DNA of 40,000 nt from an uncultured Alphaproteobacteria bacterium. GTDB lineage: Bacteria; Pseudomonadota; Alphaproteobacteria; ATCC43930; CGMCC-115725. The notes beneath the pieces are model-generated. The model did no database searches. It was given only the letters and a program-made list of their open reading frames with translations, and had not been told where the DNA came from. Below, in pieces: positions 14,342 through 32,622 of this stretch. The stretch spans positions 1,396,751-1,436,750 of the forward strand of contig CAWJFM010000023.1 of assembly GCA_963842175.1 (NCBI GenBank), given 5' to 3'. Both the position numbers and the translations under genes were made by a program. The stretch's first letter is position 1, and each line of letters opens with the position of its first letter.

Positions 14342-15193
14342 TCAGCATGCAGTGCTTGTGTAGAAATTGCCGCCGTTCCAGCAGACGGCATGACCGCCGA
14401 GACTGGTATCGATGTAGAGCACCGTCTCGCTGATATGACCGCTGCTGTCGGTCTGAAGGATGGTGTTGGCCCCGGAATTGCCGATCGGTGTCCCCGTCGC
14501 CAGCGCGGTGCCGCCGGTGCCGCTCCATCGCACGACATAACCGTCGGTTGAGCTACCCGGCCCGGTCACGAGATTGGCGATGACCGAACTCGACAGATGG
14601 CCGCTTGAGTCCGTCTCCATCACCGTATTGGCGCCGGAATTGCCAACCGGATAACCGGTCGCCAGCACACACCCGTTGGTGCTGCCCCACGATGCGACAT
14701 AACCGGCGGTCGTGCTGCCAGGACCGGTGATGCAGAAGCTCCCCGTGATGCCGATCGCCGAGGCAGTTGCCGGCGTCGCTCCGACAACCCGGAAATTGCC
14801 GGAATTGTCGAATTCGAGGGCCAGCATTTCGTAATTGCCGGCCGCGGTGGTGACCGATGTGACGGAATGCCCGCTCGGAAAGAGGATATTCCCGCCGCCC
14901 GTGGCGTTGGTCTGCACCGTTACCTGGTGGGCGTTATCGTTGACGACCTTGATCGTCCAGCCCGATGGCAAAACCCCGGATGTCGTTGCATTGGCCGGTA
15001 ATGTGATCGTCAGCGTGCCGCCGGCGTTGTAGGCCGAAAACACTGACCCCGAATCGTTCGGCACTGCGGTGTAGCTGGCGGCCGACGGATAGCGCCAATA
15101 ATCGTTGGCGCTGATCAGCTGCGCCCGCGCGGGAGGGCAGCCGAGGCCGGCAAGCAGCAGGGCGCAGACGAGGGCAGCCGAGCGCAGCATCAT
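14342..15193 (-). CDS. tail-fibre-like repeat protein with N-terminal signal peptide
   Basis: 283 aa. ATGA overlap with the upstream tail gene. MMLRSAALVCALLLAGLGCPPARAQ signal. Two tandem ~54-aa repeats (TGPGSTTAGYVASWGSTNGCVLATGYPVGNSGANTVMETDSSGHLSSSV / TGPGSSTDGYVVRWSGTGGTALATGTPIGNSGANTILQTDSSGHISETV) at 14408-14731. Confidence 0.55.
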   Translation of the reverse strand: MMLRSAALVCALLLAGLGCPPARAQLISANDYWRYPSAASYTAVPNDSGSVFSAYNAGGTLTITLPANATTSGVLPSGWTIKVVNDNAHQVTVQTNATGGGNILFPSGHSVTSVTTAAGNYEMLALEFDNSGNFRVVGATPATASAIGITGSFCITGPGSTTAGYVASWGSTNGCVLATGYPVGNSGANTVMETDSSGHLSSSVIANLVTGPGSSTDGYVVRWSGTGGTALATGTPIGNSGANTILQTDSSGHISETVLYIDTSLGGHAVCWNGGNFYTSTAC

Positions 15194-15813
15194 GGCGGTG
15201 CACTCCCGACGAGGCTCCAGAACACCGAGGCGAGCGTCGCGTCGGGCGACGCCGGCGCGACGATCGTCAGCACGTCGCCGATCGCGAAGGCGGTCGCCGC
15301 CGACATCGTAAAGCTCGCGGTCGTCGCGCTGGCCGCGAACGCCATCGTCCCGACGGCGCTGCCGTTCTTTTCGATCGAGTAGGTCGCCGTCCCCGTCGCC
15401 GCGGTCCCCGCAGCGCCCTGGCTGCCGCTGAGCCCGGCCGGAAAGGTCGTCGCCTGGCCGAAAACATAACGCTGCACGACCTGTGACGGCGTGGTCGGCC
15501 CGCTATAGGAGGCCGCGACCACCATCGCCGCGGCGCCGGCGCCGGTCAGCGTGTAGGTGACGGCGCCGACCTCGGCGAGGCTCTGCAGGGCCTGGCCGAA
15601 GGTGTTGAACGATAAGAGCTTCACAAAGATCGTCGAACCGATCAGGTTTGCCGGATAGCTGTAGCGGAACAACGACGGGTCATTCGGGCCGAAGCGCGCG
15701 AATTGGGCGCCGCTCGAATGGCTGCCGATCGGCGTCCCGTAAACGCCGCGGCGCAGCAGCGTCGTCAGGTTGTAGCGGTAGGCGGCGGTGAGGTTCGCGG
15801 TCTCATAGCTGAC
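15190..15813 (-). CDS. 3' portion of a tail (host-specificity-type) protein gene split by the 13.2-kb insertion
   Basis: In frame from 15813: VSYETANLTAAYRYNLTTLLRRGVYGTPIGSHSSGAQFARFGPNDPSLFRYSYPANL...SLVGSAPP. Joins seamlessly to 29025-29690 once the insertion and one repeat copy are removed. Confidence 0.8.
   Translation of the reverse strand, partial: VSYETANLTAAYRYNLTTLLRRGVYGTPIGSHSSGAQFARFGPNDPSLFRYSYPANLIGSTIFVKLLSFNTFGQALQSLAEVGAVTYTLTGAGAAAMVVAASYSGPTTPSQVVQRYVFGQATTFPAGLSGSQGAAGTAATGTATYSIEKNGSAVGTMAFAASATTASFTMSAATAFAIGDVLTIVAPASPDATLASVFWSLVGSAPP
15799..15813. repeat. target-site duplication, left copy
   Basis: GGTCTCATAGCTGAC is identical to 29025-29039 and directly abuts the left terminal inverted repeat. 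Confidence 0.85.
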
Positions 15814-15887
15814 CCCCTGGGAGCACGTCCGTCCGAACGGCAGGGTAGAGTGGTGCGGTGGTCAACAAAACTAATTGACGTGTCGCT
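15814..15887. repeat. left terminal inverted repeat
   Basis: CCCCTGGGAGCACGTCCGTCCGAACGGCAGGGTAGAG... matches the reverse complement of 28951-29024 at 67 of 74 positions. The first 37 nt are perfect. Confidence 0.9.
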
Positions 15888-15920
15888 CCCAAATCGGCTT
15901 TGTCTACCGTATTGTCACTG

Positions 15921-16213
15921 CCCGGCCTCCGGTGTCCCGGCCAGCCCCGCTGCGCTCGTCGGGCCGCGCTGGTGCTCGCTGAGGCAGTTCCAGCTCGCCC
16001 CGGCCTTGGTTAGCTCGGCCGGCGCCCGTGCACCCCAGCGGGCGCTCGCTGAGGCGGTTTCCGGCCCGGCCTGGACTCGGGTAGCTCGTCCCCGCCGTTC
16101 CGTGGCCTCGCGGGCTTCGCTGGCGGTCGCTGAGGCGTTTCCGGCCGCGCCCGGCCTCAGATAGGTCGGTCGCCCGCTCGCTGCGCTTGCTGGGCCGCGC
16201 TGGCGCTCGGGGG
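15921..16213. repeat. left subterminal array of about 4 degenerate 65-85-bp tandem units
   Basis: Each unit starts CCCGGCCT and ends with a CGCTGG-GCTCGCTGAGGCGGTTTCCGG-like core (15961-15990, 16040-16064, 16117-16145, partial at 16195-16213). The same core occurs inverted at the right end and once internally at 17322-17353. Confidence 0.75.
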
Positions 16214-16424
16214 AAATGGATGGGTGGGGGTGTGCTGTTTCGTGACGCACCCGGACACCTCGGTGGGGTGCGGCACGCAGCAACCGCCGGGTCGATCACA
16301 GCTTGGCGATGCCCCGATTTACCATTGCCTGAGCCATTCAAAGGCACGACTTTGGCCACGACGTTGCCGGCAATTCTGGCGAATATCGGATTAACTATAA
16401 AGAGCCGAAGCCAGGGAGGGATAA

Positions 16425-16628: not shown

Positions 16629-16649
16629 ATCCAGAGTTGTTTGGATCAG

Positions 16650-17740: not shown

Positions 17741-17818
17741 GGTGCTACTTCGCTTTAGGGACCCCCTCGCGGAGGTTCCAAAACCGTTAGAAATCCTAAG
17801 CTTTGGTGGGCGATCCGC

Positions 17819-18371
17819 ATGTCTTTCACCAGATATGCACGGGTATCGACGGACGGCCAAAGCGTCGACGCGCAGATCACGGCGTTGACCGTCGCCGGCG
17901 CTGAAAAAGTTTCCCGCGAAGTGGCGAGCGGAACCAAGACCGACCGGGCGCAGCTCTTCCGATTGCTCGACCGGCTCGACGACGGCGACGTGCTGATGGT
18001 GACGCGGCTCGACCGGCTCGCGCGCTCGACCCGCGATCTTCTCAATGCCCTCGCGGCGATCACCGGCAAGGGAGCCGGTTTCCACTCGCTCGGCGACGCA
18101 TCGGCGAACACGACACCGCCGCACGGCTGGTTGATGCTCACCGTGCTTGGCGGCCTTGCCGAGTTCGAGCGCGAATTGATCCGCACGCGCACCGGCGAAG
18201 GACGGGCACGGCCGAAGGCTCGCGGTGTCAAACTCGGCCGGCGGCCGAAACTTACCCCGCACCAGAAGCGCGAGGGCTTTGGCGCGGCGCGAAAAGGGCA
18301 AGGAGACACTTGCCGACATCGGCCGCAGCTACAACGTGAGCGCATGGACGATTTCAAGGCTGACAGCTTGA
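17819..18371 (+). CDS. small serine recombinase (resolvase/invertase family); one frame break near 18275
   Basis: YARVSTDGQSVDAQ (catalytic Ser motif), VTRLDRLARSTRDLL and LAEFERELIRTRTGEGRARPKARG. Dropping one G of GAGGGC restores the C-terminal HTH ALARREKGKETLADIGRSYNVSAWTISRLTA, with a stop at 18369-18371. Confidence 0.85.
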
Positions 18372-18410
18372 CCTCGCGCACGTTTGGACGCTGAGGAGGA
18401 AACGCAAACG

Positions 18411-19250
18411 ATGGGCCGCCCCTTCGATTCGTGGCAGGATTACCAGTTATTCTCCCGCGCCGTCCGGAAACACAGAAGATATATCAGGACTCCGTCAGAA
18501 CAGGCCTTTTTAGAGGCAGTACGCGTCACAGTGAAAGACCGTATAATAACTCGTCCGGCGGGATACACGTTTTGGCGCGCGCAGCGCGGATACTGTGTGG
18601 GGTCAACCGCAATGGACAACGTCGACATTATCGACGCAGTTCCGTATCCGTCGGAACGAATGAAACCTCGTACCAATCAAGCCTCCGAAGGCGGAGCTAA
18701 TCCAAAAGACATTCCATGTCTCTATGGCGCGACTTCTCCTGATACCGCTGTGGCGGAAGTAAGGCCATGGAAGGGAGAACTTGTTTCAATTGGCAAATTT
18801 ACTCTATGTCGTAACGTGAAAATAGTAGAATGTTTAAAATATCATGATGAAGACCCCCATGATGTCTTTCTGAATACGCTCTACCCTCTTATGACATCAG
18901 CTACGGGAGAGATTGTTGCGGGCGAGCCGGAACCCCCTTCAGACGAAGCTGTAATAAAAAACGTGTGGACGCATATAGATAAGGCATTCTCTGAACCAGT
19001 AACACACAGCGATGACCACGTAGACTACGTACCGACACAGAATTTAGCAGAATTATTCAAGACAGAGGATTACGATGGCGTGTGTTATCACAGTCAGCTT
19101 TCAGATATGGGTGTTAATTTGGCGTTTTTTGACCTAGAGATAGCAACAGTAGCAGGCCGCCATTTGCGCCAAGTGACTGACGTAAAAATAGAATCCAAAA
19201 TGCGCGAAGGCCGCGGGATTGATCCCCATTCCGGCAAGCCAAATAATTAG
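18411..19250 (+). CDS. RES-domain protein
   Basis: FWRAQ, GGANPKDIPCLYGATSPDTAVAEVRPWKG and YVPTQNLAELFKTEDYDGVCYHSQLSDMGVNLAFFD fit the RES family pattern. The usually conserved Arg of the GRxN motif reads Gly here. Markedly AT-richer than its neighbours. Confidence 0.65.
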   Translation: MGRPFDSWQDYQLFSRAVRKHRRYIRTPSEQAFLEAVRVTVKDRIITRPAGYTFWRAQRGYCVGSTAMDNVDIIDAVPYPSERMKPRTNQASEGGANPKDIPCLYGATSPDTAVAEVRPWKGELVSIGKFTLCRNVKIVECLKYHDEDPHDVFLNTLYPLMTSATGEIVAGEPEPPSDEAVIKNVWTHIDKAFSEPVTHSDDHVDYVPTQNLAELFKTEDYDGVCYHSQLSDMGVNLAFFDLEIATVAGRHLRQVTDVKIESKMREGRGIDPHSGKPNN

Positions 19251-19299
19251 AGATTTGGCGACGACTGGCGCGACGCGTAGGGTGTCCGTTGTCCTAGTC

Positions 19300-19625: not shown

Positions 19626-19703
19626 CTTTCCAGAATCCCGCGTTATCCGCCGCGCCAGTCTGCCGACTTTCCAGAAGTGACCTTATCGGCCATCCGGAGC
19701 GGG

Positions 19704-20135
19704 TCAAAACGGAACGTCGTCGTCGTCGAGATCGGCCGCGGCGGCGCCGCCACCGCTGAGCTAAGCCGCGCTGGCATCGTCTCGCCGACCGTCGAGCATG
19801 ACAAGCTTGCCGCGGTGCTGCGACAGCACGATCTCGGTTGCGCTGCGCTGCGGGCCTTCCTGATCCTTCCATTGGCGGGTCCGTAGCTGCCCCTCGATGT
19901 ATACTTTGGAGCCTTTGCGCAGATATCTGAAGGCGACTTCGGCGAGCTGTTCGCTAAAGATAGTGATGTGATGCCATTCGGCACGCTCGCGCCGCTCGCC
20001 GCTAGTCCGATCGTGCCAACTCTCCGATGTCACGAGGTTAAATGAAATGACAACGCCGCCCGCCTGTGTCGCCCGCATCTCGGGATCGTGTCCGAGGTTA
20101 CCGATCAGGATTACTTTGTTGATGTTACCGGCCAT
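19704..20135 (-). CDS. ssb: single-stranded DNA-binding protein with an in-frame TAG at 19761-19763
   Basis: MAGNINKVILIGNLGHDPEMR...WHHITIFSEQLAEVAFRYLRKGSKVYIEGQLRTRQW is an OB-fold SSB. After the TAG the same frame continues LSGGGAAAADLDDDDVPF then stop, the canonical acidic SSB tip. Confidence 0.85.
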
Positions 20136-20138
20136 GAG

Positions 20139-22397
20139 TCATTCTTCATGCGGTAAAAAATCGATATGATCGGGCATACCTTCAAGCCAAACGTCTTCGC
20201 CCATCAGCTCCAATTCGCCGCTGTCATTAATCACCGTGATAAGCTTGTCGAAATCAGCCGGTTTATATCCTTCACTTTCGGCAAAGAGAGACCCGACGCG
20301 GGGAGACGTGGTCAGACTTCCATCGTCATTGACGACAACACGCATCCGGTGCCGCTTGCTATCCCATTCAAAGGTTTCGTGGCGTGTTTCGTCCTTCCAT
20401 TGACCTGCAAGCCAGGACTTGCCGCGGGCAAGTGCCAGCCGGTTCCCGTAAAATACAGGGATGGTTACAGGAACCGAGGGGAGCTTCCGTTCTTTCAGAA
20501 GGAGTTCTTTGGCGCCAGGTCGGCATAAAAGCTCGAACCATTCCTCGAACGTTCGAATAAATTGCGGGGCTGCCTTACCAATCACAGAACGTTTGACACC
20601 GCGCGATTTGATACGATCGGTCAATTCAGAAGCCGAGTCATCCGAATGACGCAGCAAGGTCGGTGAAAAATACACTCCGGGCTGAGCGATAAAGAGATCG
20701 GGCCATTGCTTCAATTCCCATTGCCCCAGCCCCTTACCGATATCGAGCGCGAGGGGTCGGGTGCTGAACACAGCATCGGTTGCGATCATCACCACCGCCT
20801 CGGGGTCTTGCCCGACTGCTTCCATGATCCGCGCTCGCGTTATTGCGGTGATCAAGCCGGCCTCTACCACGTCGTGATAAGGCCCGTGTCCGCTGCGCTG
20901 GGCGCGTTTGCCGTAAAGTGAGTTCAGCGCGAGCTTGAGGGGATAGCCTTTGGTCGAGGCGCCCAATCGTTGCCGTTCCACGTAAACCTCGGTGATCCAG
21001 TCATACGGCCGGCAATCGCAGCAGCGCTTGGCGATCCAAACATCGTGAACGGTGATGATGTCAGCTTGCAGGTGCTGGCAAGCCGCTTCGATTTCCGGTG
21101 ACCAATACCACCCGGTTCCGCGCAACGGCCAGAACAAGCCGCCCTTCTGCCGAAAAGGAAAGCCGCACCACAAGCTATCGGGCGGATGCGAGAACGTCAC
21201 CTTGGCAAGATAAAGTTCGCCGTTGGTCGGCAACCGCCGACGTCGGCTGTGAACCCATCGCGTATGTTGCGGGCATGGCATTTGCAGCATTCCCGCGGGA
21301 TAGGCGCTTTTGAGATCGTTTTCGAACAAGGGACCGGTGAGGAAACCGATCCGCGAAACCTCGAAGCGCCCGCCATAGTACGCAAGGTTCGCGGCGATTT
21401 CTAATTCACGATCTCGCTCGGGCCGGCGCGGCGACGGATTGTTGGAAGGCTTACTTTCCGCCGCCTCCCGCTGTTCTCTGGCAGTCAATGGCCGCTTCAA
21501 CGCACCGTGTTGTTTGAGCATTGCTGCAGCAAGCCAACCAGCTCCGGCCCATCGTTCCGGGCGAATTCCGGCGGCATAGCATACCTCGCGGAATTCGGTC
21601 ATGAGCACAGCGAGATAACGGCATTCCAAAGTGCAATATTCAATCATCTGGTCGGTTAATTCGGTAAATTCGTTCCTGATATCCTTATTCGCCTTAATGA
21701 TAGCGCGCTCGGCCTCATTACCGATGTTCCAATCCGTAATAGCTTTCACGAAAGTGCATTGAAAAAACCCAAGCGTTTCATAAACCGTTCGGCTTGATCC
21801 TTTCAAGACCCTCGGCTTCGGCCCGCTCCGATCGATCCGAGCGACGCGCAGGTATTGTCCTTGCTGATAGGTGATCGCGTATTCTCTCCAGAATACCGGG
21901 ATCGGCCCGTTCTTGCCCTGTCGTGGATTGATGATTTCCCGCAGCTTTTGGCCAGGAATACCCCGCAGGATTTGGGTTGCGTCGTAACCAATACCATATC
22001 CTACGAGAATAGGTTCTTTGGGAAGGCTCAGCAGAAATTCAAAACAATCTACAATGGACAACGCTTTGCCCTTATTGTGACGAATGTGCTTTGTCTCTCC
22101 CGATGCGTCCGCGGCGACCATCAATAAATAATGCTGCCGCCCGAGATAGTCCGTTCCGCCGCCTTCTCCGTCTATTGCCAGGAACGGGCGGAGTTCCCCG
22201 TTGGCGCGTGCTTCCCGCTTTCGCTCGCGTTCGCGTCCGAACTGTTCGGGAGTTTGTCGCTGGCGAGCGTCGCGCTTGCGGCGGCGTTCTTGCTCGCGCC
22301 GCGCTTCGACCTCCAGCGCATATTCCGGCCCCAGCGCCTTGATCCTCTCGCGGACGTACTCGACCGCAGCCGCAGCGTCGGATGGTAAGGTTGTCAT
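20139..22397 (-). CDS. family-B DNA polymerase (752 aa)
   Basis: Start at MTTLPSD (ATGA overlap with the upstream ORF). ExoI FLAIDGEGG, ExoII GYGIGYD, ExoIII YCTLECRYL. Motif A FENDLKSAYP, motif B KLALNSLYGK, motif C VMIATDAVF. KSRG lies where KxY normally sits. No frame break in 2.26 kb. Confidence 0.8.
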   Translation of the reverse strand: MTTLPSDAAAAVEYVRERIKALGPEYALEVEARREQERRRKRDARQRQTPEQFGRERERKREARANGELRPFLAIDGEGGGTDYLGRQHYLLMVAADASGETKHIRHNKGKALSIVDCFEFLLSLPKEPILVGYGIGYDATQILRGIPGQKLREIINPRQGKNGPIPVFWREYAITYQQGQYLRVARIDRSGPKPRVLKGSSRTVYETLGFFQCTFVKAITDWNIGNEAERAIIKANKDIRNEFTELTDQMIEYCTLECRYLAVLMTEFREVCYAAGIRPERWAGAGWLAAAMLKQHGALKRPLTAREQREAAESKPSNNPSPRRPERDRELEIAANLAYYGGRFEVSRIGFLTGPLFENDLKSAYPAGMLQMPCPQHTRWVHSRRRRLPTNGELYLAKVTFSHPPDSLWCGFPFRQKGGLFWPLRGTGWYWSPEIEAACQHLQADIITVHDVWIAKRCCDCRPYDWITEVYVERQRLGASTKGYPLKLALNSLYGKRAQRSGHGPYHDVVEAGLITAITRARIMEAVGQDPEAVVMIATDAVFSTRPLALDIGKGLGQWELKQWPDLFIAQPGVYFSPTLLRHSDDSASELTDRIKSRGVKRSVIGKAAPQFIRTFEEWFELLCRPGAKELLLKERKLPSVPVTIPVFYGNRLALARGKSWLAGQWKDETRHETFEWDSKRHRMRVVVNDDGSLTTSPRVGSLFAESEGYKPADFDKLITVINDSGELELMGEDVWLEGMPDHIDFLPHEE

Positions 22398-22810
22398 GCT
22401 GCCGCCCTGCGACGGATGCCGGCGCGTGTCGAGTAGTAGAGGCGCCACAGCGAGCCGCGATAAAACGGCCACTCGGCGAAGGGATCGGGAGCGCTCGGCG
22501 GCACGTAGTCGGGATAGCGTTGAACCGCTGCCCGGAACCGATCTTGTTCGTTGATCGACAGCGCGTTGAACAGGCTGCGGTCGCGGTCGCTGAGCGCGAC
22601 CCGGAACTCTTCCCGTGTTTCAATTGCCCGGATGCCGCGCCGCGCTGCCGCTGCCCGCCGCTGCGCCCGGCGGCGCGCCTCGGGATTTTTCGCACGGGCC
22701 GCTCGCGCTTCGGCGAGCGCTCGGCGCCTGCTCAGCTCGGCCCGGTGCTGCCGCTCGTAGGAAGGAGTGCCGGGCCGGTACGGATTGCGTCGCGGGCGCC
22801 GCTCAGCCAT
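22394..22810 (-). CDS. basic hypothetical protein translationally coupled to PolB
   Basis: MAERRPRRNPYRPGTPSYERQHRAELSRRRALAEARAARAKNPEARRR...FAEWPFYRGSLWRLYYSTRAG. Its stop overlaps the polB ATG. Confidence 0.5.
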   Translation of the reverse strand: MAERRPRRNPYRPGTPSYERQHRAELSRRRALAEARAARAKNPEARRRAQRRAAAARRGIRAIETREEFRVALSDRDRSLFNALSINEQDRFRAAVQRYPDYVPPSAPDPFAEWPFYRGSLWRLYYSTRAGIRRRAAA

Positions 22811-23166
22811 GGCGTGCCGCCACATGAAAATGGCGAGCCTCCCGCCAGCGCGGGCGCGAGCCTAAAACGAAAAAGTCCGGGTCCGGCGAGAACAAAATCG
22901 GATCGAACCGCGGTCGGAATTCGTCGGCATCGAGCGCCACAGCGAGCCGCGCATACGCGGCAGTCATTGGCCGCGCTCCCACCGCGGGACCTCGGCATTG
23001 CCTCGCTCCGCCCGCCATGGTAAAGCGTTCACCATGAAGTTCCCCCCTCCGCGGCAGCCGCCGTGGTTGTATGGACTGGGCGACCGATATCATGTGCGGA
23101 AAAATGCCGCAAGAAATATCGGGAGCATGCCTTCTTTTCAAACAGAATCAGTGCTATAAGAGGCGC

Positions 23167-23793
23167 ATGAACACCAAGCGCCAGGCCTTGGACGCCACCT
23201 CAGCCCTCAAATCCGGCGACCTCTCGAAGGCCGTTAGGCTTGCGGCCAAAGCCGCCAAAACCGCCAAAACCGCCGAAGATGGTCTACTACCTCTGCTCAA
23301 CGAGGCCATGCAGGCAGGGATAGCCCTCGGGCAGGCGAGCGGCAAAAGCGAGGCTCCGCCGCCGGAAGCATTGGGATTTTTGCGCTTTTTAGCGGCAGCG
23401 CCGGTTGCCGCGGAGGGCTTTCGGACACTGCGGGAAAGCCTCGGAATCTCGCAGGCTGAGATTGCCGAAATGTGCGGCGTCTCCCGCGCGGCTGTGTCCG
23501 ACTGGGAGCGTGGCAAAGCGTCTCTGCCGCCAGCCGCCGTTCATGCCCTTCTCGGGTTAACGATGGCCCGCCTTGGTCGGGCCGAGCCGGCGCCGCTGCT
23601 CGGCAGCGATATAGCCAGGATTCGCAAAGCACTCCGGATGCGGCAAACCGATTTAGCCGCTGCACTCGGAGTCAGCGAGATCGCGGTCAGGAAATGGGAG
23701 CAGCGTGGCGATCAGCCGCTTGCTTCATCGACGGTTCGCCGCATCCAGCCCCGGCTCGACGAACTACAGGCGCAAGCGTCAGCAGCGTCTTGA
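23167..23793 (+). CDS. DNA-binding protein with two XRE/Cro-type HTH domains
   Basis: ORF 23071-23793 trimmed to the ATG at 23167. LRESLGISQAEIAEMCGVSRAAVSDWERGK and IRKALRMRQTDLAAALGVSEIAVRKWEQRG. Divergent from the polB operon and immediately upstream of the Cas1-like gene. Confidence 0.7.
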   Translation: MNTKRQALDATSALKSGDLSKAVRLAAKAAKTAKTAEDGLLPLLNEAMQAGIALGQASGKSEAPPPEALGFLRFLAAAPVAAEGFRTLRESLGISQAEIAEMCGVSRAAVSDWERGKASLPPAAVHALLGLTMARLGRAEPAPLLGSDIARIRKALRMRQTDLAAALGVSEIAVRKWEQRGDQPLASSTVRRIQPRLDELQAQASAAS

Positions 23794-23833
23794 TCTGATC
23801 ACTCGGTTCAAATTCGAGCCGCTCGGATCGGGA

Positions 23834-23864
23834 TTGATTTTAATCGCCGTCGAATTGGTATAGT
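23834..23864 (+). promoter_or_regulatory. candidate promoter for the Cas1-like gene
   Basis: TTGATT (23834-23839) and an extended -10 TGgTATAGT (23856-23864). The spacer is 19 nt, longer than optimal. Lies in an AT-richer gap. Confidence 0.25.
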
Positions 23865-24100
23865 ATTGAATTTGCTCCGCAAAGGGGCGCACCGGAGCAG
23901 GCGCTGGAACGCCTGCCCCGGCACTTGATCAACGATGCGATAGGAGCGCACCGTGACCCTGCTGATACGTGTTCCCAAACCTCAGAGGCGTCAACCGGGT
24001 CGTTGCCCGCTCTTAGACGGACAGACCGTCCCGACTGCGGGCATTCTGTTCAATCGCTGCATCGTCCACCCGAGCCAAACGGAAAACCGGAGGCTCCCTC

Positions 24101-25744
24101 ATGCACGCCGATGACACGAACTACACCGTCATTAAGAATGGCGTGGTTGTCGTGAGCGGCACCGGCCCGGCGATCCGCGTCGACGGCAACAAGCTGGTCA
24201 TCCGCGACGGCCCGAAGGAAACCCCGCCGCTCGCGCTGACGCGGGCGGAAGCCTCGCGAAGGCTGCGACATATCATCGTCACCGGGCAGGCCGGCGGCTT
24301 CATCACCTTCGACGCGCACCGATGGCTGCGCGACACGGGTGTTGCGTTCTCTCAAGTCGATTGGGATGGGAGCGTCATCATTGCTTCCGGATCGCGACGA
24401 CCCGACCGGCCGGCGCTGCGCCGGGTGCAAACGCTCATATGCAGCGGAGTCATTCCACAAACAGCGGTCGCCATCACGCGCGAAATCCTGCGCGTCAAGC
24501 TGGCCGGCCAAGCTGAGGTTGCCCGGCTGCTAGGGCGGGCGGAGGCGAGCGCGGCCATCGCCGGCCTCACTGCGGACATCGCTCGCGAGGCGGCCGGCCC
24601 AAAGGTGCTGGCGATCGAAGCGAAGGCGGCCTCGATTTACTGGCGCGAGTGGGCAACGGTGCCGGTGCGGTTCGCCCGCGACAACCCGCAGCGGCTCGAT
24701 CATAAGGGACGATGGCGGCCCGGCCGAGCCGCGGCATGGCATACATTCGGAAGCCGGGTGTCGGCGTTGACCGGTAAGCCGCGGCGGGCGACTACGGCCG
24801 GCAACGCGATTCTCAATTTCCTGCTAGGGATCGCAAAAATCGAGATGACCGTTGCCTTGTACGCGGTCGGACTCGACGCAGGGATTGGACTATTTCATGC
24901 CGATGAGGACGGCCGCCCCTCGCTGGCGCTGGATGCGCAAGAGGCAGTCCGTCCGTATATCGACGCATGGTGTCTCTCGTTCCTGGCAGCGACGGCTTTC
25001 GCCAATCGTGATTTCCACGAAACCGCAGAAGGTGAGGTTCGGCTTACCCATCCGCTCACGGCGCACCTTGCACATATGGCCGCGCTGTGGCGGCCGGCGT
25101 GCGAGCGGGTAGCGGCATGGCTGGCGCAGGCGTTCGCCGGTACGGTTGACCTTCCCGCCGACAAACCCGGCGCTGACGATCTGCCGCGGATCGCTGCCGC
25201 TGTCGCCGGGCCGCGGAAGCGAGGCGCGCGGCAACTGGCGCCCTTACCTCGACTGTTGCCGGTGCCCACCGGGCGGGACTTGAGTAGCCTGCCGGCACTG
25301 CGCGGCGGCTTGCGCGACAACCCCGTACCGCAGGCGTGTTTCGAATGCGGCCGAGCGCTGACGCGGAAGCAACGCCGTTTCTGTTCGACCGCTTGTACAG
25401 CCGCCTTTTCTACGGCCTCGGGGCGGATCGCAGCGATGCGTGAATTGTCTGCGGGATCAACCGACCGTTCCGAAACCCTTCGCGCCGCCAATGCCGCACG
25501 ACGCGAATGGGCAGCCCATCACGCCGCGGATCGGGTCGCCTTCGATCGCTGGTATTCGGCTGCGATAGAGCCGCGCCTTACCTCGCTCCGCACCGCCGAT
25601 ATTCGGCGCTCCCTTGCGGTGTCCTGGAGTTATGCTACCCTCATCAAGCAGGGGCGGCGAACGCCACACCCGCGACATTTTCCGGCCTTAGCGAAGCTCG
25701 CCGGGGTTGAGGCGCCGAGCATCGGCGCGGCGGGTAGCGGATGA
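24101..25744 (+). CDS. cas1: Cas1-like integrase (putative casposase) with a C-terminal Cys4 and HTH-like extension
   Basis: GGAGG RBS. HIIVTGQAGGFITFDAHRWLRDTGVAFSQVDWDG (N-terminal domain). AIEAKAASIYW (E173), TAGNAILNFLLG (N235), GLDAGIGLFHADEDGRPSLALDAQEAVRPYID (H266, D278/E281) match the Cas1 catalytic-domain pattern by eye. CFECG...RFCSTAC at residues 413-432. No frame break in 1.64 kb. Confidence 0.8.
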   Translation: MHADDTNYTVIKNGVVVVSGTGPAIRVDGNKLVIRDGPKETPPLALTRAEASRRLRHIIVTGQAGGFITFDAHRWLRDTGVAFSQVDWDGSVIIASGSRRPDRPALRRVQTLICSGVIPQTAVAITREILRVKLAGQAEVARLLGRAEASAAIAGLTADIAREAAGPKVLAIEAKAASIYWREWATVPVRFARDNPQRLDHKGRWRPGRAAAWHTFGSRVSALTGKPRRATTAGNAILNFLLGIAKIEMTVALYAVGLDAGIGLFHADEDGRPSLALDAQEAVRPYIDAWCLSFLAATAFANRDFHETAEGEVRLTHPLTAHLAHMAALWRPACERVAAWLAQAFAGTVDLPADKPGADDLPRIAAAVAGPRKRGARQLAPLPRLLPVPTGRDLSSLPALRGGLRDNPVPQACFECGRALTRKQRRFCSTACTAAFSTASGRIAAMRELSAGSTDRSETLRAANAARREWAAHHAADRVAFDRWYSAAIEPRLTSLRTADIRRSLAVSWSYATLIKQGRRTPHPRHFPALAKLAGVEAPSIGAAGSG

Positions 25745-25957
25745 CCCCCGTGCGCAGCGACATTGGGGGCGGCATTCATTGCGGCCTTCTCCGCGCTGGC
25801 CTGCGCTGTTGGGCAGCGCCAATCCATACTGTTCCCCGGTGCAGATCGTCCGCGTATCGGCTTCAAATGTTGCTGGCCTCCTGCAAATTCCCGAAGGCGC
25901 CCGGTCGAAGCGGCCCCGCGCTGGCGCGCCTTCAAATTTAGAGCGAGGCGGGCTTAA

Positions 25958-26648
25958 CTACAGGCTGGCACTTGCAGCCATCTGTGCCGCTCTGACGATC
26001 CGGTCTTGCTCCGCTTTCTCCTGATGCCAAACTTCTCGCTCCTGAGCGTAGGCTTCGAAATCTTGTCGGATTTTCTTCTCAGCCTGTGCGGCACCCTCCA
26101 AAACGGACTTACAACCCGAGGCAAGGTCAGTTTCGACCTGAAATGACACTCCGAGGGAGCTGCCACCGCTGCAAATGGCCGAGGTCGCATGGAGGAGCGG
26201 CAAGAAATTGTTGGCCCAATACTGATGGTTGTTCCGGAGAGTTGTCACCTGCATGTGGAGGTTGCTCGCTTGCAGCCCCATCTGGATTAGCTGAACCGAA
26301 AATTGCACCCGCGTGGCGCCAGTTTGTCCGGGAGCAGGTGAATAGAAAGTGCGTTCCCTTTCCAGACCGTTTCTCATCGCCGCGGTGATATCTCGATACC
26401 TTTGTTCGATCCTCTCCAACTGGCGAACGCGCTCGGCAACCGCAGAACTCAATACCTGCGTTGTCCGATAGAACCTGATTGATGTGTTCCCTCAGGCTCT
26501 GTTGCGCGGCTTGCTGCGCCTGCCGCGCTCGCTGTGCTGCCGCCTGTGCAGCTTTTTGCTGCTGTTCAGCTTGCCGAGCTGCGGCAATGCGAACCGCTTT
26601 CCGTTCCGTTACCGGACGGTGGGATTTCCGAGCAACATCGAAATACAT
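25958..26648 (-). CDS. coiled-coil hypothetical protein (one gene with a frame break near 26460, or two genes)
   Basis: MYFDVARKSHRPVTERKAVRIAAARQAEQQQKAAQAAAQRARQAQQAAQQSLREHINQ (from the ATG at 26648) runs into VLSSAVAERVRQLERIEQRYRDITAAMRNG... of ORF 25958-26452 after a 1-nt shift. Confidence 0.4.
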
Positions 26649-26869
26649 CTACCCGGTGTGAGCTGGACATGTTGGGCTGCGGCAATCGCGTCTATCGCCG
26701 AGTCCGGAAGCACGGCCACAATCGCAGCTCCAATTCCACCTTGGCGCATCGCCTCCTGTCGAATTTCGTCGCGCACGATCCCGCATGGGCTGAGTGTGCC
26801 GAATTTCAGTAGCACGACGCCAGCCGCGATTGCTACCAGAGCAATGCATATGAAGCCGGCTTCGCGCAT
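26609..26869 (-). CDS. membrane hypothetical protein
   Basis: ORF 26609-26881 from the ATG at 26869: MREAGFICIALVAIAAGVVLLKFGTLSPCGIVRDEIRQEAMRQGG... The tail overlaps the next gene by 40 nt. Confidence 0.4.
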   Translation of the reverse strand: MREAGFICIALVAIAAGVVLLKFGTLSPCGIVRDEIRQEAMRQGGIGAAIVAVLPDSAIDAIAAAQHVQLTPGRCISMLLGNPTVR

Positions 26870-26986
26870 CGCAGCCCCCAAAGGTCGGTGTGCGCCAAGT
26901 AGGCGTTAATGGTGAATATAAACCTAATACGGTTTATCATAGCGCTGTTGCTGGCGGTTTTCGAATGGCTGGCGATGGTGATCGGC

Positions 26987-27064
26987 ATGATCACCTCTCG
27001 GCAGATCAGAGCCGCTCACGCGCTTCTCGGCTGGTCTCAACAGCAGCTTGCCGACAAGGCATCT
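26987..27064 (+). pseudogene. 5' fragment of an XRE-type HTH gene
   Basis: MITSRQIRAAHALLGWSQQQLADKAS is a typical XRE N-terminus. Downstream, the + frame becomes the antisense of the minus-strand fragment. Confidence 0.45.
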
Positions 27065-27074
27065 CGTCAAAAAA

Positions 27075-27227
27075 TTAGGGGCGGGCGAGCCGCACCCCTT
27101 CTCCCTTCACGTCGGCCGCGAGAAATTCGATGCCGGCTTCCGTCAGTGCTTTGTGGACCGCCATCAACGTGCTCATCCTCGGGTCCACCTCCCCTCGCTC
27201 TAATCGCGCGAGCGCGTTGAGAGAAAT
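27075..27227 (-). pseudogene. 3' fragment of an XRE-type HTH gene, on the opposite strand to its 5' fragment
   Basis: ISLNALARLERGEVDPRMSTLMAVHKALTEAGIEFLAADVKGEGVRLARP then stop. No start codon or first helix upstream. Joining it to 26987-27064 gives a complete in-frame HTH protein. Confidence 0.5.
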
Positions 27228-27274
27228 GATTGGGCAGCCGGCGCTACCCTCGCGCGAAATACGAGAGGGAGGCA

Positions 27275-27537
27275 ATGCCGCATCGACGACGCATTTTGGC
27301 GACACTCGCCGCCCTTGGGTTGCTTCTGGCAACAATAGGCGGCGCGGCAGCTCAGTAACCGGGGGTTGGATTGCGGCTACTACGTCAACCGAAGCGGAGA
27401 AACGCCTCCGCGCCCATGGAAGCGTCAGGGAGGAACAACCGCCACGCGGCGCCACGGCAACATGCCGCGATGGGGAGTACAGCTACAGCCGGCATGATAG
27501 CGGCACGTGCTCCGGACAGGGCGGCGTGCAAAGCTGA
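27275..27537 (+). CDS. DUF3761-like secreted protein, spread over three frames
   Basis: GAGGGAGG RBS. MPHRRRILATLAALGLLLATIGGAAAQ signal, then GYYVNRSGE..., then PPRGATATCRDGEYSYSRHDSGTCSGQGGVQS (the C-DG-YS-S...GTCS-GGV signature). Confidence 0.6.
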
Positions 27538-27753
27538 CTCTGCTGAATGTCAAGCCGAGTGGGTGCGCCATGCAATTCTTCGCCGCCGCTTCGATCATAA
27601 TCGCCGGCATCGTCGGCACGATACTCGCGGTGTTTGATCGTTCTCGCGATGCGCCAAGGCTGGCGCGAGGGCGACGTGGTTGAAGTTCACTCGGCCCTGA
27701 CGGGATGCAGGTCATCGATCTCCAAGAGCGGCAGCACCGCGCAGAGTTCGCCG

Positions 27754-27948
27754 ATGATCACTGATCTCGACATTTACCGTGCTGCGAATTTGCTGATCGA
27801 GCGGCACGGCCCGAATGCGCTCATTGAGGCGGCCCGGCTAATCGATCGGATGCTAGAGCGCGGCGACCGCGATGGGCAACTTGTGTGGCTACGGATCAAG
27901 CGGGCGATCGAGGCGTTGCAAGCACCGCCGAGCGGGACGAGGCATTAA
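27754..27948 (+). CDS. hypothetical small protein
   Basis: ORF 27634-27948 trimmed to the ATG at 27754: MITDLDIYRAANLLIERHGPNALIEAARLIDRMLERGDRDGQLVWLRIKRAIEALQ. Confidence 0.5.
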   Translation: MITDLDIYRAANLLIERHGPNALIEAARLIDRMLERGDRDGQLVWLRIKRAIEALQAPPSGTRH

Positions 27949-28241
27949 TGACGAACGACCTGGAGATCATACATATTCTTTGGCGCGGACCATTAACATT
28001 GGCAGATGCAAGCACTGCCAATACAGGTGGCGACTACGGCGTGTATCAAATCTATGGCACACATGAAACAGGAGGACCTGATACGCTGCTCTATGTAGGT
28101 CAGGCTGATCGGGGAACGTTCGATGGCCGCATCCTGTATCATTATTCAGAATGGGGCCGGTGGAACCCCGATGATCTCAAAATTTACCTCGGACAAATGG
28201 CGGGGGTCAGGCCGATAACCAACGACGCTTGGGGCAATTAA
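27948..28241 (+). CDS. hypothetical protein
   Basis: ORF 27885-28241 trimmed to the ATG at 27948 (TAATG overlap with the upstream stop): MTNDLEIIHILWRGPLTLADAS... Lower GC. Confidence 0.45.
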   Translation: MTNDLEIIHILWRGPLTLADASTANTGGDYGVYQIYGTHETGGPDTLLYVGQADRGTFDGRILYHYSEWGRWNPDDLKIYLGQMAGVRPITNDAWGN

Positions 28242-28444
28242 CAGTTCGCGCATTCGATCGCTTCGATATCAAGAGAAACCCATCTTAATCGTAAATCACG
28301 GACGCAGACATCGCCTACCAGAATGCATCTCGACCCTTACCGAATTCATCAACACCGATGGTCGGCTAAAGCCATTTAGCCCGGATAATTCACGAAGTCG
28401 CATAAGGAGGGCGGCGGGAGCAGCATAAGCCGTTGGATTTGTGT

Positions 28445-28700
28445 ATGATTATGGTTGTTCAGGCCAGATCAACCGAAGCAACGGAGTTCGCGCCCGCCAT
28501 GGCGGAAGGTACGGGGATTCTGCCGGGTTTGCCAGCCGTCGCCGGCAAGCCGGTGTATGTCGGTTTCGATGGAGGACGGCTCACCTCAGATGCCGGTATC
28601 CTGTTGCTGTCAGCCGTCGAGCAGCGGCTTCGGATCGCCGAGCGCCTGGCCGCCTGCCTCGAAGACCCGCGCGACCCGGACAGGGTGCGACACGAGCTTG
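28445..28700 (+). pseudogene. N-terminal remnant of an IS1380/IS4-type DDE transposase
   Basis: KPVYVGFDGGRLTSDAGILLLSAVEQRLRIAERLAACLEDPRDPDRVRHEL resembles the N-terminus of DDE_Tnp_1_4-type transposases. The similarity stops after about 85 aa, where the ORF runs into the subterminal repeats. Confidence 0.5.
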
Positions 28701-28708
28701 CCGACGGC

Positions 28709-28940
28709 GAGGCCCGGCGAGCGCATGAGTGGCCGGCTGAGGCCGCCGAGGGGGGGCAAGCCAGAACCGCCTCAGCGGGCGCCAGCGAGGCCCGGCCAGC
28801 GCAGCGGGCGGCTGGCCGAGCTGTCCGGAGGCCGGGTAAGCCGGAACCGCCTCAGCGACCGCGAGCGAGGCCGGGCGAGCGCATCGAGCTACGCGAGGCC
28901 GGGCGACGCGAGGCCGGGCGACGCGAGGCCGGGCGACGCC
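28709..28940. repeat. right subterminal repeats, inverted relative to the left array, plus 3 perfect 15-bp tandem copies
   Basis: GAACCGCCTCAGCG cores at 28765-28778 and 28845-28858 are the reverse complement of the left-end CGCTGAGGCGGTT core. ACGCGAGGCCGGGCG occurs three times in tandem at 28891-28935. Confidence 0.75.
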
Positions 28941-28950
28941 AGGAAGTGGT

Positions 28951-29024
28951 AGTGACGCATCAATAGGTTTTGTTGACCACGGCACCGCTCTACCCTGCCG
29001 TTCGGACGGACGTGCTCCCAGGGG
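28951..29024. repeat. right terminal inverted repeat
   Basis: Its reverse complement matches 15814-15887 at 67 of 74 positions. The terminal 37 nt are perfect. Confidence 0.9.
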
Positions 29025-29039
29025 GGTCTCATAGCTGAC
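29025..29039. repeat. target-site duplication, right copy
   Basis: GGTCTCATAGCTGAC is identical to 15799-15813. Confidence 0.85.
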
Positions 29040-29690
29040 CAGCTCGCCGTCGCAATAGCACAGCGTCACGAAATCGTTGGCATTGGCGCTGGTGCCGGAG
29101 AGCAGCTGGCCCTGGCTCATCGCCAGGTCGACGCTGAGCGTGTCGCTGGTGTCGGGGTCGGCGTGGCTCGGCAGGCTTGCGGTCAGCACGCCCTGGCGGC
29201 CGCCGCGGTAGATCTGGCCGGCCAACGCATAGGTGTTGCCGTCGGTCGAGACCCAGATCTGGGCGCCCCCCCAATTCGGATTGTAGAACGCGATCGTGTC
29301 GCCGCTGCCCACTCCGCCGCCGGTCACAGCGGCGCTCAACACCGGCGCGGTTGGCGAGGGGGTCTGCACCGTGGTCCCAGCCGGGATCGCCCCCGGGCTG
29401 GTCAGATCCTCGACGACGACGCCGGCGACGACCGAGGGCGGCAGCGGCCCAGTGAAATGCAACGTCGCGCCCGAAGCGGTCGCCGCACTGGTCGCGACCT
29501 GGACATCGCCGCCACTCGCGATCAGCCAGACTTCGAGGTCGCCGCCCGACAATGCCGGCGGCGGCTCGAAGATGATCGGCGCGTTGGCGTTGCCGGGGTC
29601 GACCAGCATGTTCGGGCCGCTGCCGGCCGTCGCCAGCCGCGTGTAGCGCTGCGGCGTGTTGACGCCGATCGGGGTGATGGTGCCGGGCAT
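29025..29690 (-). CDS. 5' portion of the tail protein gene split by the insertion
   Basis: ATG at 29690: MPGTITPIGVNTPQRYTRLATAG...NANDFVTLCYCDGELVSYET. The track ORF 28581-29690 then reads through into the TIR. Confidence 0.8.
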
Positions 29691-29778
29691 CAGGTGTCAG
29701 GAACCAGGAGCCAGGAAGGAATGCGGCGCCCCCACCTTCTTCTTCCTGATCCCTGATCCCTGTCTCCTGGTCCCTGTC

Positions 29779-31153
29779 TCACGGCGTCACTCCCGGGATC
29801 TCTTCGGCGGTGACGGTCAGTTCGCCGTTGTCGTCTTCGTCGATCTGGGTGATCCGCACCGCCGCGCCGGAGAGGCCGAGGGTCGCGTCGGTCAGCAGCA
29901 CGATGTCCATCGGCTCCAGCAGCGAATAGCGCCAGCCGAGCTTCCACTTGTAGGTGTTGCGGACATAGGCCTTGCGCTGCAATTGCAGCTGCGCCGAGAC
30001 CTGGGCGCTGGTCGAGTTGGTGAATTCGTGCGCCTGCACCGAGGGCTCGGTGCGCAAGCCCGTACTGGTCGATCAGGCCCTGGTCCCACACCGCGATGAT
30101 CTGCGGGTTGTAGTTGTTGTAGCTGTCCATGTACTCGACGCTGAGCCAGTTGGTCGCCGCCGAGGGATCGCTGCGGGTCAGCATGACCGGATCGCTGCCC
30201 GGAGCCATCGCCGCCGAAATCGAGGAAATCCGCGTCGGCGAGGCTGTATTGCCAGGTCAGATTCGGGGTCCAGCTGGCGCCGTTGGTCGCTAGCGCCAGG
30301 TCGCCATAGGGGATGATCTTGAGGAGGCTGCCCGACCACACCACCGCCGCGACGGCGAGCTGGGCCATTTCCTCGAGCCAGCGCGCGCAGGGCTGCTGGC
30401 GGTCCAGCAGCAGCGACATCGCGAGCTGCGACGGCCTGGCAGTAATTGGCGAAATCGGCGATCGAGCCGGCGCTGTCGAGGTTGGCCGCCGGGAAACCCG
30501 GCGCCGTAGCGCGGGTTGGTCAACAGATCGATGACGATCTCGGCCGGGTTGGCGTCGCCCGGGAAATGCGGGCCCGACCGTGCCGGTCTCGAACCCGTGA
30601 TCTCGAACGAGATGTTGGGCAAGGCCGGGGTCGAGCCCAATTGCAGCGGCGTCCCGGTGACGTAGGAGGTGCCGGAATAGCCGAGGACCGGGCTGTTGGG
30701 GTCCGCTGACTGCGAACACCGGGTCGGGGGCCTGGCCGTCGTTGCCGCCGTAGATGTTGACCGGCGTCCGGTCGATGCCGGCGACCGAGCCGTCGGCCCA
30801 CACCCGGTTCTCCCGAGCCGAGCCGTTGAGAAAGCCGTTCGGCGCGCCGGTGAAGTTGACCGGCCCCTGGCAGATGCCGAAGGCGACATCGACCGAATAA
30901 TTGGCGCCCGAGCCTTTCTTGCCGCCGAGCTGCCGAGCCCCTTGCCGCCCTTGCTGCTGCTGCCGAAGCCTTGTTCGCCCCAGAATTCGAGGAGGTTGAT
31001 CGAGACCCGCTGGCAGCCGTAGACGAGCGGCACCGGGCTGCCGGCCTGGCTGGTGTTGTAGCGCAGGCTCGCGATCGTCGCCGGCTTGAAGGCGTTGGAG
31101 AACGGCGTCGGACCGCCGCCCTTGCCGCCGGGGAAATCGCCGCCGTCAGGCAT
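29779..31153 (-). CDS. phage tail / host-specificity protein (GTA g15 N-terminal-like); about six frame breaks
   Basis: Sensible sequence hops between frames: MPDGGDFPGGKGGGPTPFSNAFKPATIASLRYNTSQAGSPVPLVYGCQRVSINLLEFWG; WADGSVAGIDRTPVNIYGGNDGQAPDPV; SPVLGYSGTSYVTGTPLQLGSTPALPNISFEITG...ANPAEIVIDLLTNPRYGAGFP; LLDRQQPCARWLEEMAQLAVAAVVWSGSLLKIIPYGD; SDPVMLTRSDPSAATNWLSVEYMDSYNNYNPQ; KWKLGWRYSLLEPMDIVLLTDATLGLSGAAVRITQIDEDDNGELTVTAEEI. Confidence 0.7.
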
Positions 31154-32392: not shown

Positions 32393-32490
32393 GATGAATT
32401 CTCCTAGGTTTCGCGTCGGGCAGCAGGTTTCTGCGCGCCGCCGGCGCCCGACGGAGGACTGGCGGCAGGAAAAGCGATAGGCTTGCGGAC

Positions 32491-32619: not shown

Positions 32620-32622
32620 CCG

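Follow-up and report, generated by a model that had tools for sequence, protein, structure and literature searches.

A bacterial casposase with a predicted zinc finger-HTH tail that probably binds DNA

The window analysed here, a 40,000-nt stretch of contig CAWJFM010000023.1 from an uncultured alphaproteobacterium, contains an open reading frame (ORF) that is, on its sequence, the gene of a casposase, the Cas1-type integrase of a casposon; the element in this case is bacterial and 13.2 kb in length, and integrase activity is predicted. Casposases are the presumed ancestors of Cas1, the integrase of CRISPR spacers, and what their additional C-terminal DNA-binding domains do is a question that this family may help to answer. 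Behind its Cas1 core the window protein carries an extension which, from conservation and structural modeling, we conclude to consist of a treble-clef-like Cys4 finger and an XRE-type helix-turn-helix (HTH) rather than of a zinc ribbon or a disordered tail. This zinc finger-HTH tail is real and conserved; it would bind zinc and probably binds DNA. Most likely, the module serves to anchor the integrase on the DNA of the element's ends. The element offers a tractable bacterial system, with an intact gene, clean ends with a duplicated target site, and a terminal sequence shared by many elements.

The Pfam model Cas_Cas1 matches residues ~52-318 of the protein (E=3e-27). The closest solved structure by sequence is the M. 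mazei casposase 6opm (E=2.5e-13), and a Foldseek search with the AlphaFold model of the full-length protein also places this entry, labeled there "Casposase bound to integration product," first (E=9e-14), with CRISPR Cas1 proteins ranking behind it. Both results agree with an earlier note on this DNA, made from the letters alone, which had recognized a casposase-type Cas1. It had also described a Cas1-like core followed by a Pro/Arg-rich linker in a gene free of frame breaks; the ORF (24101-25744, forward strand, 547 residues) is indeed intact, the core is assigned to residues 1-345 and the linker to residues 346-405, and in the full-length model the core helices stop near residue 348. A search of 5.8 billion proteins yielded 245 matches, and among the best 120, which were looked at, dozens of proteins of ~550 residues align end to end with the casposase at 51-82% identity. 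Conservation was assessed on 36 full-length homologues in this same range of identity, to which all statements of invariance below refer. The catalytic residues E173, H266, D278, and E281, which align to the 6opm motifs, are invariant, and mean pairwise identity is 82% in the N-terminal domain and 69% in the catalytic helical domain.

The casposon spans positions 15814-29024. It is bracketed by terminal inverted repeats (TIRs) which are 90% complementary over 79 nt and continue imperfectly for ~400 bp, and by a perfect 15-bp target-site duplication (TSD), GGTCTCATAGCTGAC, exact copies of which are found only at 15799 and 29025. In-silico removal of the element together with one TSD copy restores a host ORF of 426 codons, which matches an Rcc01698-like C-terminal domain (Rcc01698_C; E=4.5e-13). 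This gene lies in a cluster with genes for a baseplate hub, for the tail, and for a GH25 lysozyme (neighbors at 13226-13909, 29690-30208, and 31904-34123). The TIRs, the perfect TSD, and the restored ORF indicate a genuine and fairly recent insertion into a tail gene of a prophage or gene transfer agent (GTA). With a family-B DNA polymerase (PolB) encoded beside cas1, with TIRs and a TSD, and with a predicted integrase, the element fits the definition of a casposon fully.

Inward of the TIRs are direct repeats with the core CGCTGAGGCGGTT; that the gene lies within an element with TIRs and such subterminal repeats had been noted before and is borne out here. The core occurs three times at the left end, twice in inverted orientation at the right end, and once at 17337; with up to two mismatches there are 12 matches versus 2.6 expected. 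No copy is found in the casposase/PolB promoter region at 22.8-24.1 kb. The additional repeat unit with this core (17312-17349), situated 1.5 kb inward of the left end between the gene for a 194-residue protein and that for a resolvase, could be an inner binding site or a scar of cargo acquisition. A palindrome, GTCAA-N9-TTGAC, is present at 15861-15879 and is mirrored in the right TIR.

The homologues are named "CRISPR-associated endonuclease Cas1" in their source databases, and the Cas1 models of PADLOC match the window protein, as would be expected of a Cas1 from CRISPR adaptation, or a decaying remnant, with the extension an irrelevant fusion. We regard this as next to impossible. The protein scores just under the cut-off of the generic NCBIfam cas1 model (70 vs 71.7 bits), and more than 100 homologues conserve the extension within a single ORF. 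The window yielded neither a CRISPR array nor a tRNA or any Rfam family, the only interspaced repeats there are those of the element's own ends, and PADLOC revealed no further Cas protein among the element proteins scanned. A part in CRISPR adaptation was rejected on this genomic context, that of an element with TIRs, a TSD, and PolB. The identification as a casposase thus follows from the Cas1 domain, 6opm as nearest structure, the invariant catalytic residues, the absence of CRISPR, the TIRs and TSD, and the linkage to PolB.

The extension begins with the linker, which is variable (mean pairwise identity 31%) and has an isoelectric point (pI) of 11.5. The finger motif, CFECGRALTRKQRRFCSTAC, begins at residue 413. 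The four cysteines named in the earlier note (C413, C416, C428, and C432) are conserved in homologues and, from a reading of the translation by eye, are the only ones in the roughly 200-residue extension. No variation is seen at C413, C416, L420, F427, and C428; the only exchange at C432 is for His, in three of the 36 homologues (FCTDEH or FCTDAH), from which we surmise that a metal ligand is retained at the fourth position (Cys 150 times and His six times across all retrieved proteins). The finger, with a mean pairwise identity of 52%, combines a C-x2-C knuckle with C-x3-C at the N-terminus of a helix, and conserved basic residues adjoin it (R-x-F-C and RKQRR). In the model a short knuckle is followed by a helix beginning at the third/fourth Cys, at a predicted local distance difference test (pLDDT) score of 83-89. 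A Pfam scan of 24 module sequences gave sub-threshold matches to DUF2116, "probable treble clef," in 20 (best E=7e-4), to PLATZ in 18, and to zf-FCS in four; a PDB profile search of the module found fingers of the MYM and FCS types (MYM, L3MBTL2, and PHC1), also below threshold (2das, 2w0t, and 2l8e; E=0.2-0.7). The NCBIfam model of YacG, which we take to be the protein of structure 1lv3, matches the casposase weakly (E=0.022). Of the zinc ribbon proposed earlier, the Cys4 metal-finger motif therefore stands, and the fold does not: matches and model point to a treble clef of the YacG/FCS/MYM kind.

Between finger and HTH lies a spacer with a mean pairwise identity of 30%, in which W484 is invariant. 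The HTH itself shows 48% mean pairwise identity, is strongly basic (pI 11.7), contains the invariant residues G518, P522, H523, H526, L530, and A531, and conforms to the tail pattern ...DIxxAxxxSxxYAxxIxxGxRxPHPRH[FY]xxLAxLAGV. With 48-52% identity between stretches of ~30%, the finger and the HTH appear as islands under constraint. AlphaFold2 was applied to residues 398-547, using 24 homologues; in the resulting model, whose mean pLDDT is 82, the finger is followed by two long helices and then by three short helices at pLDDT 90-95. Confidence in the full-length model is low at residues 351-375, 390-405, and 442-461, which suggests flexible tethers. When the C-terminal model was compared to the PDB using Foldseek, nearly all of the top 50 matches were XRE-type domains (SinR, 434 repressor and Cro, C.Esp1396I, DdrO, HipB, and Aca11), consistent with the C-terminal HTH suggested in the earlier note. 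Pfam HTH_3/HTH_31 match four to five of the 24 homologues (best E=4.5e-5), and homologue P0021 carries a precomputed PF13560; in a Pfam scan of the window casposase itself the HTH did not reach threshold. The helical fold and the pattern ...S..Y...I..G.R.P....L..LA..LGV are those of XRE/Cro-cI domains (HTH_3/HTH_31; SinR, 434 repressor, C.Esp1396I), whereas the window HTH differs in possessing an invariant P-H-P-R-H-[FWY] past the recognition helix and in being fused to an integrase instead of forming a stand-alone regulator. A lack of conservation, or disorder, had been named as grounds for abandoning the proposed extension; both were looked for, and the extension proved to be conserved in more than 100 homologues and to be modeled at the mean pLDDT given above.

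Species-representative genomes hold seven related loci, all in uncultured Alphaproteobacteria or proteobacterial metagenome-assembled genomes. A core of PolB, a small protein (p143), and casposase recurs in L003, L005, L006, and L008 and in the contigs carrying homologues P0002, P0030, P0032, and P0105; PolB is adjacent to the casposase also in L005, L006, L008, L012, L013, and L014, so that the linkage is seen at no fewer than six related loci. The cargo differs among related elements, and several copies are degraded or broken by insertion sequence (IS) elements. L005 possesses perfect TIRs of 189 bp and a 14-bp TSD, AGGTTCTTCGGGGC, and the TIRs of L006 extend for ~1 kb. A terminal tip, CCCCC[T/A]GGGAGCACGTC[GTC]CGTCCG, is common to seven ends from five elements, the sequences diverging beyond it. 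The tip of the window element is conserved in L004, L005, L013, and L014; L012 has a variant tip, and its right end is homologous to that of the window element. Among the other loci the CGCTGAGGCGGTT core is found in L012 only; the casposase there is 82% identical to that of the window, and the HTH helices of the two hardly differ. Covariation of HTH helix and subterminal repeat could be looked at only in the window element and L012, close relatives and the only two to share both, which is too few for such a comparison.

Some further features of these ends were seen. A short, operator-like palindrome is located ~45 nt from the tip in each TIR, reading GGTTGA...TCAACC in L005 (~1546-1574) and at the right end of L013, and elements with an HTH-less casposase possess it as well. 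Inward duplicates of the tip, 150-490 bp from the end, are found in L005 (1531-1552 and 2022-2043), L014 (402-445 and 556-600), and L004 (4473-4936); they resemble multiple transposase-binding sites, and the window element has none.

The insertion sites bear upon the suggestion that the module picks the chromosomal target site instead of binding the element's ends. Hickman et al. speculated that the family-2 HTH, which is essential for integration by the M. mazei enzyme, acts in this manner (PMC6977970), and strong target preferences are described for family-2 casposons (PMC5137440). Two clean insertions were seen here; the TSD of the one in the phage tail gene, GGTCTCATAGCTGAC, bears no relation to that of L005, AGGTTCTTCGGGGC, and the aligned flanks share no apparent motif except for C-runs beside the tip. 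We give a target-selecting module little credence.

An exhaustive search of cluster representatives with a profile of the module returned 2,572 at E<=1e-3 and 666 at the stricter limit of E<=1e-10; those that could be read are Cas1 fusions or pieces of such fusions. A recognizable Cas1 core is present in 55 of the top 150 matches, including divergent fusions of 500-700 residues. Profile matches of 130-250 residues were considered as stand-alone zinc finger-HTH proteins and rejected: most start inside the last Cas1 helix, and most of the non-Cas1 matches in the top 150 are therefore gene fragments. Casposases of ~450 residues which end after the finger exist, for instance in L005, where no HTH ORF was found downstream, as do casposases with two HTH units (P0151, P0176, P0188, P0210, and L010). 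The finger is present in all architectural variants, the HTH-less ones included; together, the forms with finger and HTH, with finger only, and with a double HTH represent natural deletion and duplication experiments. A "core-only" class (~370 and ~374 residues) was rejected, since directly past the stop, which falls in the linker, the finger is encoded in a different frame; the ~374-residue forms are accordingly frameshifted or split copies. An identical 374-residue ORF was observed in two different samples (L011, 1100-1399, and a 38.6-kb contig with P0105), and these short ORFs could reflect decay or a programmed frameshift. P0165 (631 residues), with 13 tandem Cys4 units of the form C-x2-C...C-x3-C and no Cas1 core, is an unrelated poly-finger protein caught by the module profile.

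The retention of the finger in every variant, with or without an HTH, would also be expected if it were a YacG/MYM-like protein-interaction module, recruiting PolB, a terminal protein, or a host factor, or driving a tetramerization that replaces Cas2, with DNA contacted by the HTH only. The closest profiles (YacG, MYM, and FCS) include fingers known to bind proteins. Many transposases, on the other hand, bind their ends with small zinc fingers, the basic flanks of this finger (R-x-F-C and RKQRR) are conserved, and no partner was identified in this analysis. Casposases must tetramerize without Cas2 (PMC6977970), a point in favor of this explanation, which we nevertheless hold to be improbable.

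The arrangement of zinc finger and HTH, which the earlier note did not recall as described, has a precedent. The casposon AceAut-C1 of Candidatus "Acetothermum autotrophicum" (GI 374850936; family 3) was reported by Krupovic et al. in 2014 to have a zinc-binding domain and an HTH at the C-terminus of its Cas1 (PMC4046053), and the claim of novelty for the domain arrangement therefore fails. The supplement to that paper lists this Cas1 as "Cas1-Zf ... C-terminal Zf motif (1lv3), P=86," along with a 602-bp TIR and a 15-bp TSD; the casposase has 521 residues with a core ending near residue 311, which leaves an extension of ~200 residues (PMC4046053). Over 194 residues, a fragment of its core and the window protein share 30% identity (E=7e-13), with signature blocks in common. 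Both proteins thus combine a Cas1 core with a zinc-finger/HTH extension of ~200 residues, although the extensions are likened by description and their homology would be an inference, and both elements have long TIRs and a 15-bp TSD. AceAut-C1 differs in encoding HNH and in that its PolB, for which Pol delta was the top HHpred match, bears an HTH of the 434-Cro kind (PMC4046053), whereas no HNH was found in the window element and its PF03175/tectivirus-like PolB has no HTH; the hosts are a thermophilic candidate phylum and an Alphaproteobacteria-like bacterium, respectively. New here are the assignment of the fold types (a YacG/FCS-like treble clef and an XRE HTH with PHPRH[FWY]), the very wide distribution of the module in metagenomes, its finger-only and double-HTH variants, and the family-conserved terminal sequence.

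Family-2 casposases carry a C-terminal HTH which they share with their PolBs; it measures 60-70 residues and was assigned to the FixJ/LuxR-like type (1x3u; PMC4046053). For NitAL212-C1, a Cas1 with an N-terminal zinc-binding domain as well as a C-terminal HTH was reported (PMC4046053). Deletion of the HTH from the M. mazei casposase abolishes integration (PMC6977970). The window element resembles family 2 (M. mazei 6opm; A. boonei) in the casposase core, the tethered C-terminal HTH, and a TSD of 14-15 bp; the latter elements differ in being archaeal, in lacking the zinc finger, in possessing HNH, and in having a PolB described as RNA-primed. Homology of the window module to the M. mazei HTH was considered and rejected, there being no match at E up to 10 and the HTH being of a different type. 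RNA-primed PolBs, those of family 3 nested within those of family 2, and HNH throughout are attributed to families 2 and 3, which also have a small conserved HTH protein in common, and the bacterial family-3 casposons were reported from intergenic regions only (Krupovic 2014/2016). The window element shares a bacterial host with family 3 but is inserted in a coding gene; no HNH was found in the ORFs scanned, and an XRE HTH protein is encoded. The Streptomyces family-3 elements (StrAlb-C1, Toil-like "caspoviruses") have polymerases like that of Toil, a divergent tectivirus, and a capsid gene (Yutin et al. 2018, PMC5894146); because StrAlb-C1 was later found with such a PolB, RNA priming is not a uniform criterion for family 3. 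StrAlb-C1 is like the window element in being a bacterial Cas1 element whose PolB belongs with Toil-like tectivirus polymerases, as do the relatives of the window PolB, and unlike it in encoding a capsid protein and a Cas1 without extra domains, where the window Cas1 has finger and HTH. Family 1 (Thaumarchaeota) likewise has a PolB of the protein-primed type; it differs in being archaeal, in targeting the aEF-2 gene, and in a casposase without an HTH (PMC8464041). In the architecture of its casposase the window element is similar to AceAut-C1, and in its type of polymerase to StrAlb-C1.

One critical question is how such a tail is used. We lean, by a little, towards a casposase with a tethered DNA-targeting arm, in which core and finger would act on the tip and the HTH on subterminal DNA. 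Recognition of the TIR or of subterminal repeats, as the earlier note proposed, is plausible, and the basic character of the module and the need of the M. mazei casposase for its HTH (PMC6977970) speak for this reading. The Cas1 core would perform strand transfer, producing the 15-bp TSD, and the C-terminal 150 residues, comprising the zinc treble-clef finger, the basic helical spacer, and the XRE-type HTH, would form a flexibly tethered arm. Core and finger, common to all family members, would engage the family-wide conserved tip, CCCC[C][T/A]GGGAGCACGTC..CGTCCG, and the HTH would add affinity or specificity for element-specific subterminal DNA, that is, the CGCTGAGGCGGTT repeats and/or the GTCAA-N9-TTGAC palindrome, and would help to join both ends into a synaptic complex. 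Since the tip is also kept in elements whose casposase lacks the HTH, the latter cannot be its sole reader; and because the tip is common to casposases with and without an HTH, it is probably read by a shared part, the core, possibly with the finger. The L010 element has a very divergent PolB (weak PF03175 match) with a C-terminal HTH that visibly resembles the HTH units of the casposase. The presence of an HTH on both casposase and PolB, in L010, family 2, and AceAut-C1, is best understood if the two enzymes are both directed to the element's ends.

Several observations weigh against this reading. The L005 lineage can do without the HTH, its element combining TIRs of 189 bp, a TSD of 14 bp, and the common tip with a casposase that ends after the finger. 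Sharing of the CGCTGAGGCGGTT repeats with L012 could simply reflect close relatedness, the two casposases being 82% identical, and the two-HTH XRE protein encoded upstream is an equally good candidate as reader of the subterminal repeats. The XRE matches obtained with Foldseek are individually weak (E=0.3-1.6, template modeling score ~0.5 on the target, root-mean-square deviation 2-3 Å over ~55 residues). Fingers of the YacG, MYM, and FCS types often contact proteins rather than DNA. Finally, the HTH of the M. mazei casposase is disordered in the crystal and by itself has no detectable DNA binding (PMC6977970).

XRE/Cro-cI domains are classically repressors, and all of the top structural matches of this HTH are repressors or controller proteins. 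The HTH might therefore be mainly a transcriptional autoregulator, repressing the divergent casposase and PolB promoters so that transposition stays rare and operating outside the transpososome, with the finger aiding dimerization; the HTH-less casposases in elements that look recently mobile, where the HTH is evidently not needed for the chemistry, would be in keeping with this. The CGCTGAGGCGGTT core, however, has no copy in the regulatory region at 22.8-24.1 kb, a dedicated two-HTH XRE protein is already encoded at that position, and simple autorepression leaves the similar HTH on the PolBs of L010 and AceAut-C1 unexplained. In addition, the family-2 casposase minus its HTH is catalytically dead (PMC6977970). 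We judge an autoregulator to be rather unlikely.

The end-binding arm may also be placed in a wider frame, which we offer tentatively and consider possible but doubtful. The window element would be a recently mobile member of a very large bacterial casposon clade, defined by a tectivirus-like PolB of the protein-primed type, a Cas1-zinc finger-XRE-HTH protein, and a shared terminal sequence, in which the arm couples end recognition for integration with an end-primed start of replication. Such a clade would comprise hundreds to thousands of 50%-identity clusters from soil and other metagenomes, the arm being sometimes duplicated or also found on PolB. If true, the arm would be a bacterial counterpart, by a different solution, to the HTH of archaeal casposases, which is essential and unexplained. 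Apart from this reading, the results show metagenomes to be far richer in bacterial casposons with polymerases of the protein-primed type than the few isolate-derived examples suggest. The features of the window element are listed in Table 1.

Table 1. Positions of the casposon's features and of the interrupted host gene in the window
Feature	Position	Strand	Remarks
Interrupted host gene (phage/GTA tail, Rcc01698-like), 3′ half	15190..15813	-	
TSD, left copy	15799..15813		15 bp, GGTCTCATAGCTGAC
Left TIR, high-identity part	15814..15891		tip CCCCTGGGAGCACGTCCGTCCG
Left subterminal direct repeats	15952..16220	+	period 70-81 bp; core CGCTGAGGCGGTT at 15977, 16047, 16128
Cargo: serine resolvase and RES-domain protein	17819..19250	+	resolvase 17819-18394 (PF00239, E=6e-36); RES 18411-19250 (PF08808, E=3e-14)
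Single-strand DNA-binding protein (SSB)	19761..20135	-	PF00436, E=5e-33
PolB, protein-primed (tectivirus-like) type	20139..22397	-	752 aa; PF03175, E=7e-11
p143, conserved protein upstream of PolB	22394..22825	-	143 aa; kept in L003, L005, L006, L008
Stand-alone protein with two XRE HTH domains, directly upstream of casposase gene	23167..23793	+	HTH_3, E=7e-19, two stretches
Casposase gene (predicted): Cas1 core, linker, Cys4 finger, helical spacer, XRE-type HTH	24101..25744	+	547 aa
Cas1 core	24101..25135	+	N-terminal beta domain (residues 1-100) and catalytic helical domain (101-345)
Pro/Arg-rich variable linker	25136..25315	+	residues 346-405; predicted disordered; pLDDT <50 at 351-375, 390-405
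Cys4 treble-clef-like zinc finger (predicted)	25316..25420	+	residues 406-440; C413/C416/C428/C432
Basic helical spacer, variable	25421..25585	+	residues 441-495; ends in conserved W484; long helices in both models
XRE/Cro-cI-type HTH (predicted)	25586..25711	+	residues 496-537; PHPRH[FY] signature
Right subterminal direct repeats	28702..28889	-	period ~80 bp; core at 28765, 28845, inverted orientation
Right TIR, high-identity part	28947..29024		79 nt, 90% complementary
TSD, right copy	29025..29039		15 bp, GGTCTCATAGCTGAC
Interrupted host gene (phage/GTA tail, Rcc01698-like), 5′ half	29025..29690	-	

The remaining genes were identified by mapping the gene calls of a near-identical metagenome contig onto the window and by Pfam scans. 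PolB, the SSB, and the small conserved proteins p143 and p54 form an operon divergent from the casposase gene. PolB matches phrog_11768 (E=8e-36), and among annotated proteins it comes closest to the polymerases of Rhodococcus phage Toil, of the Streptomyces phages WheeHeim and Forthebois, and of Microbacterium phages of 15 kb, at ~27% identity over 65-78% of the protein (E down to 2e-43). Its motif C reads IATDAV, with Ala in place of the first Asp of the usual DTD, and an Arg/Glu-rich stretch of ~70 residues at the N-terminus might be a terminal-protein-like or priming region. No Pfam or PHROG match was obtained for p143. From its equivalent position it was considered as the missing HNH nuclease and rejected, having no cysteines, no HNH-like pattern, and no profile match; the element ORFs scanned gave no HNH match, and no capsid-sized or ATPase gene is present among the called genes of the element. 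A RES domain usually belongs to a toxin whose antitoxin is of the Xre type; PADLOC returned no match for the pair of resolvase and RES cargo genes.

The L010 element encodes PolB at 4551-7607 and its casposase at 10001-11776, with a cargo (TIR_2, HEPN_AbiU2, a trypsin-like protein, and an N6-methyltransferase) that is defense-related in appearance. In L005 a 627-residue protein with the motif …QRPFVWE…, presumably DUF262/GmrSD-like, is encoded downstream of the finger-only casposase (11439-13322) and is a candidate for defense cargo. Outside the window casposon, a pair of 35-nt inverted repeats, 91% complementary and 844 nt apart (11245-11279 and 12124-12158), may mark a small element resembling an IS or a miniature inverted-repeat transposable element.

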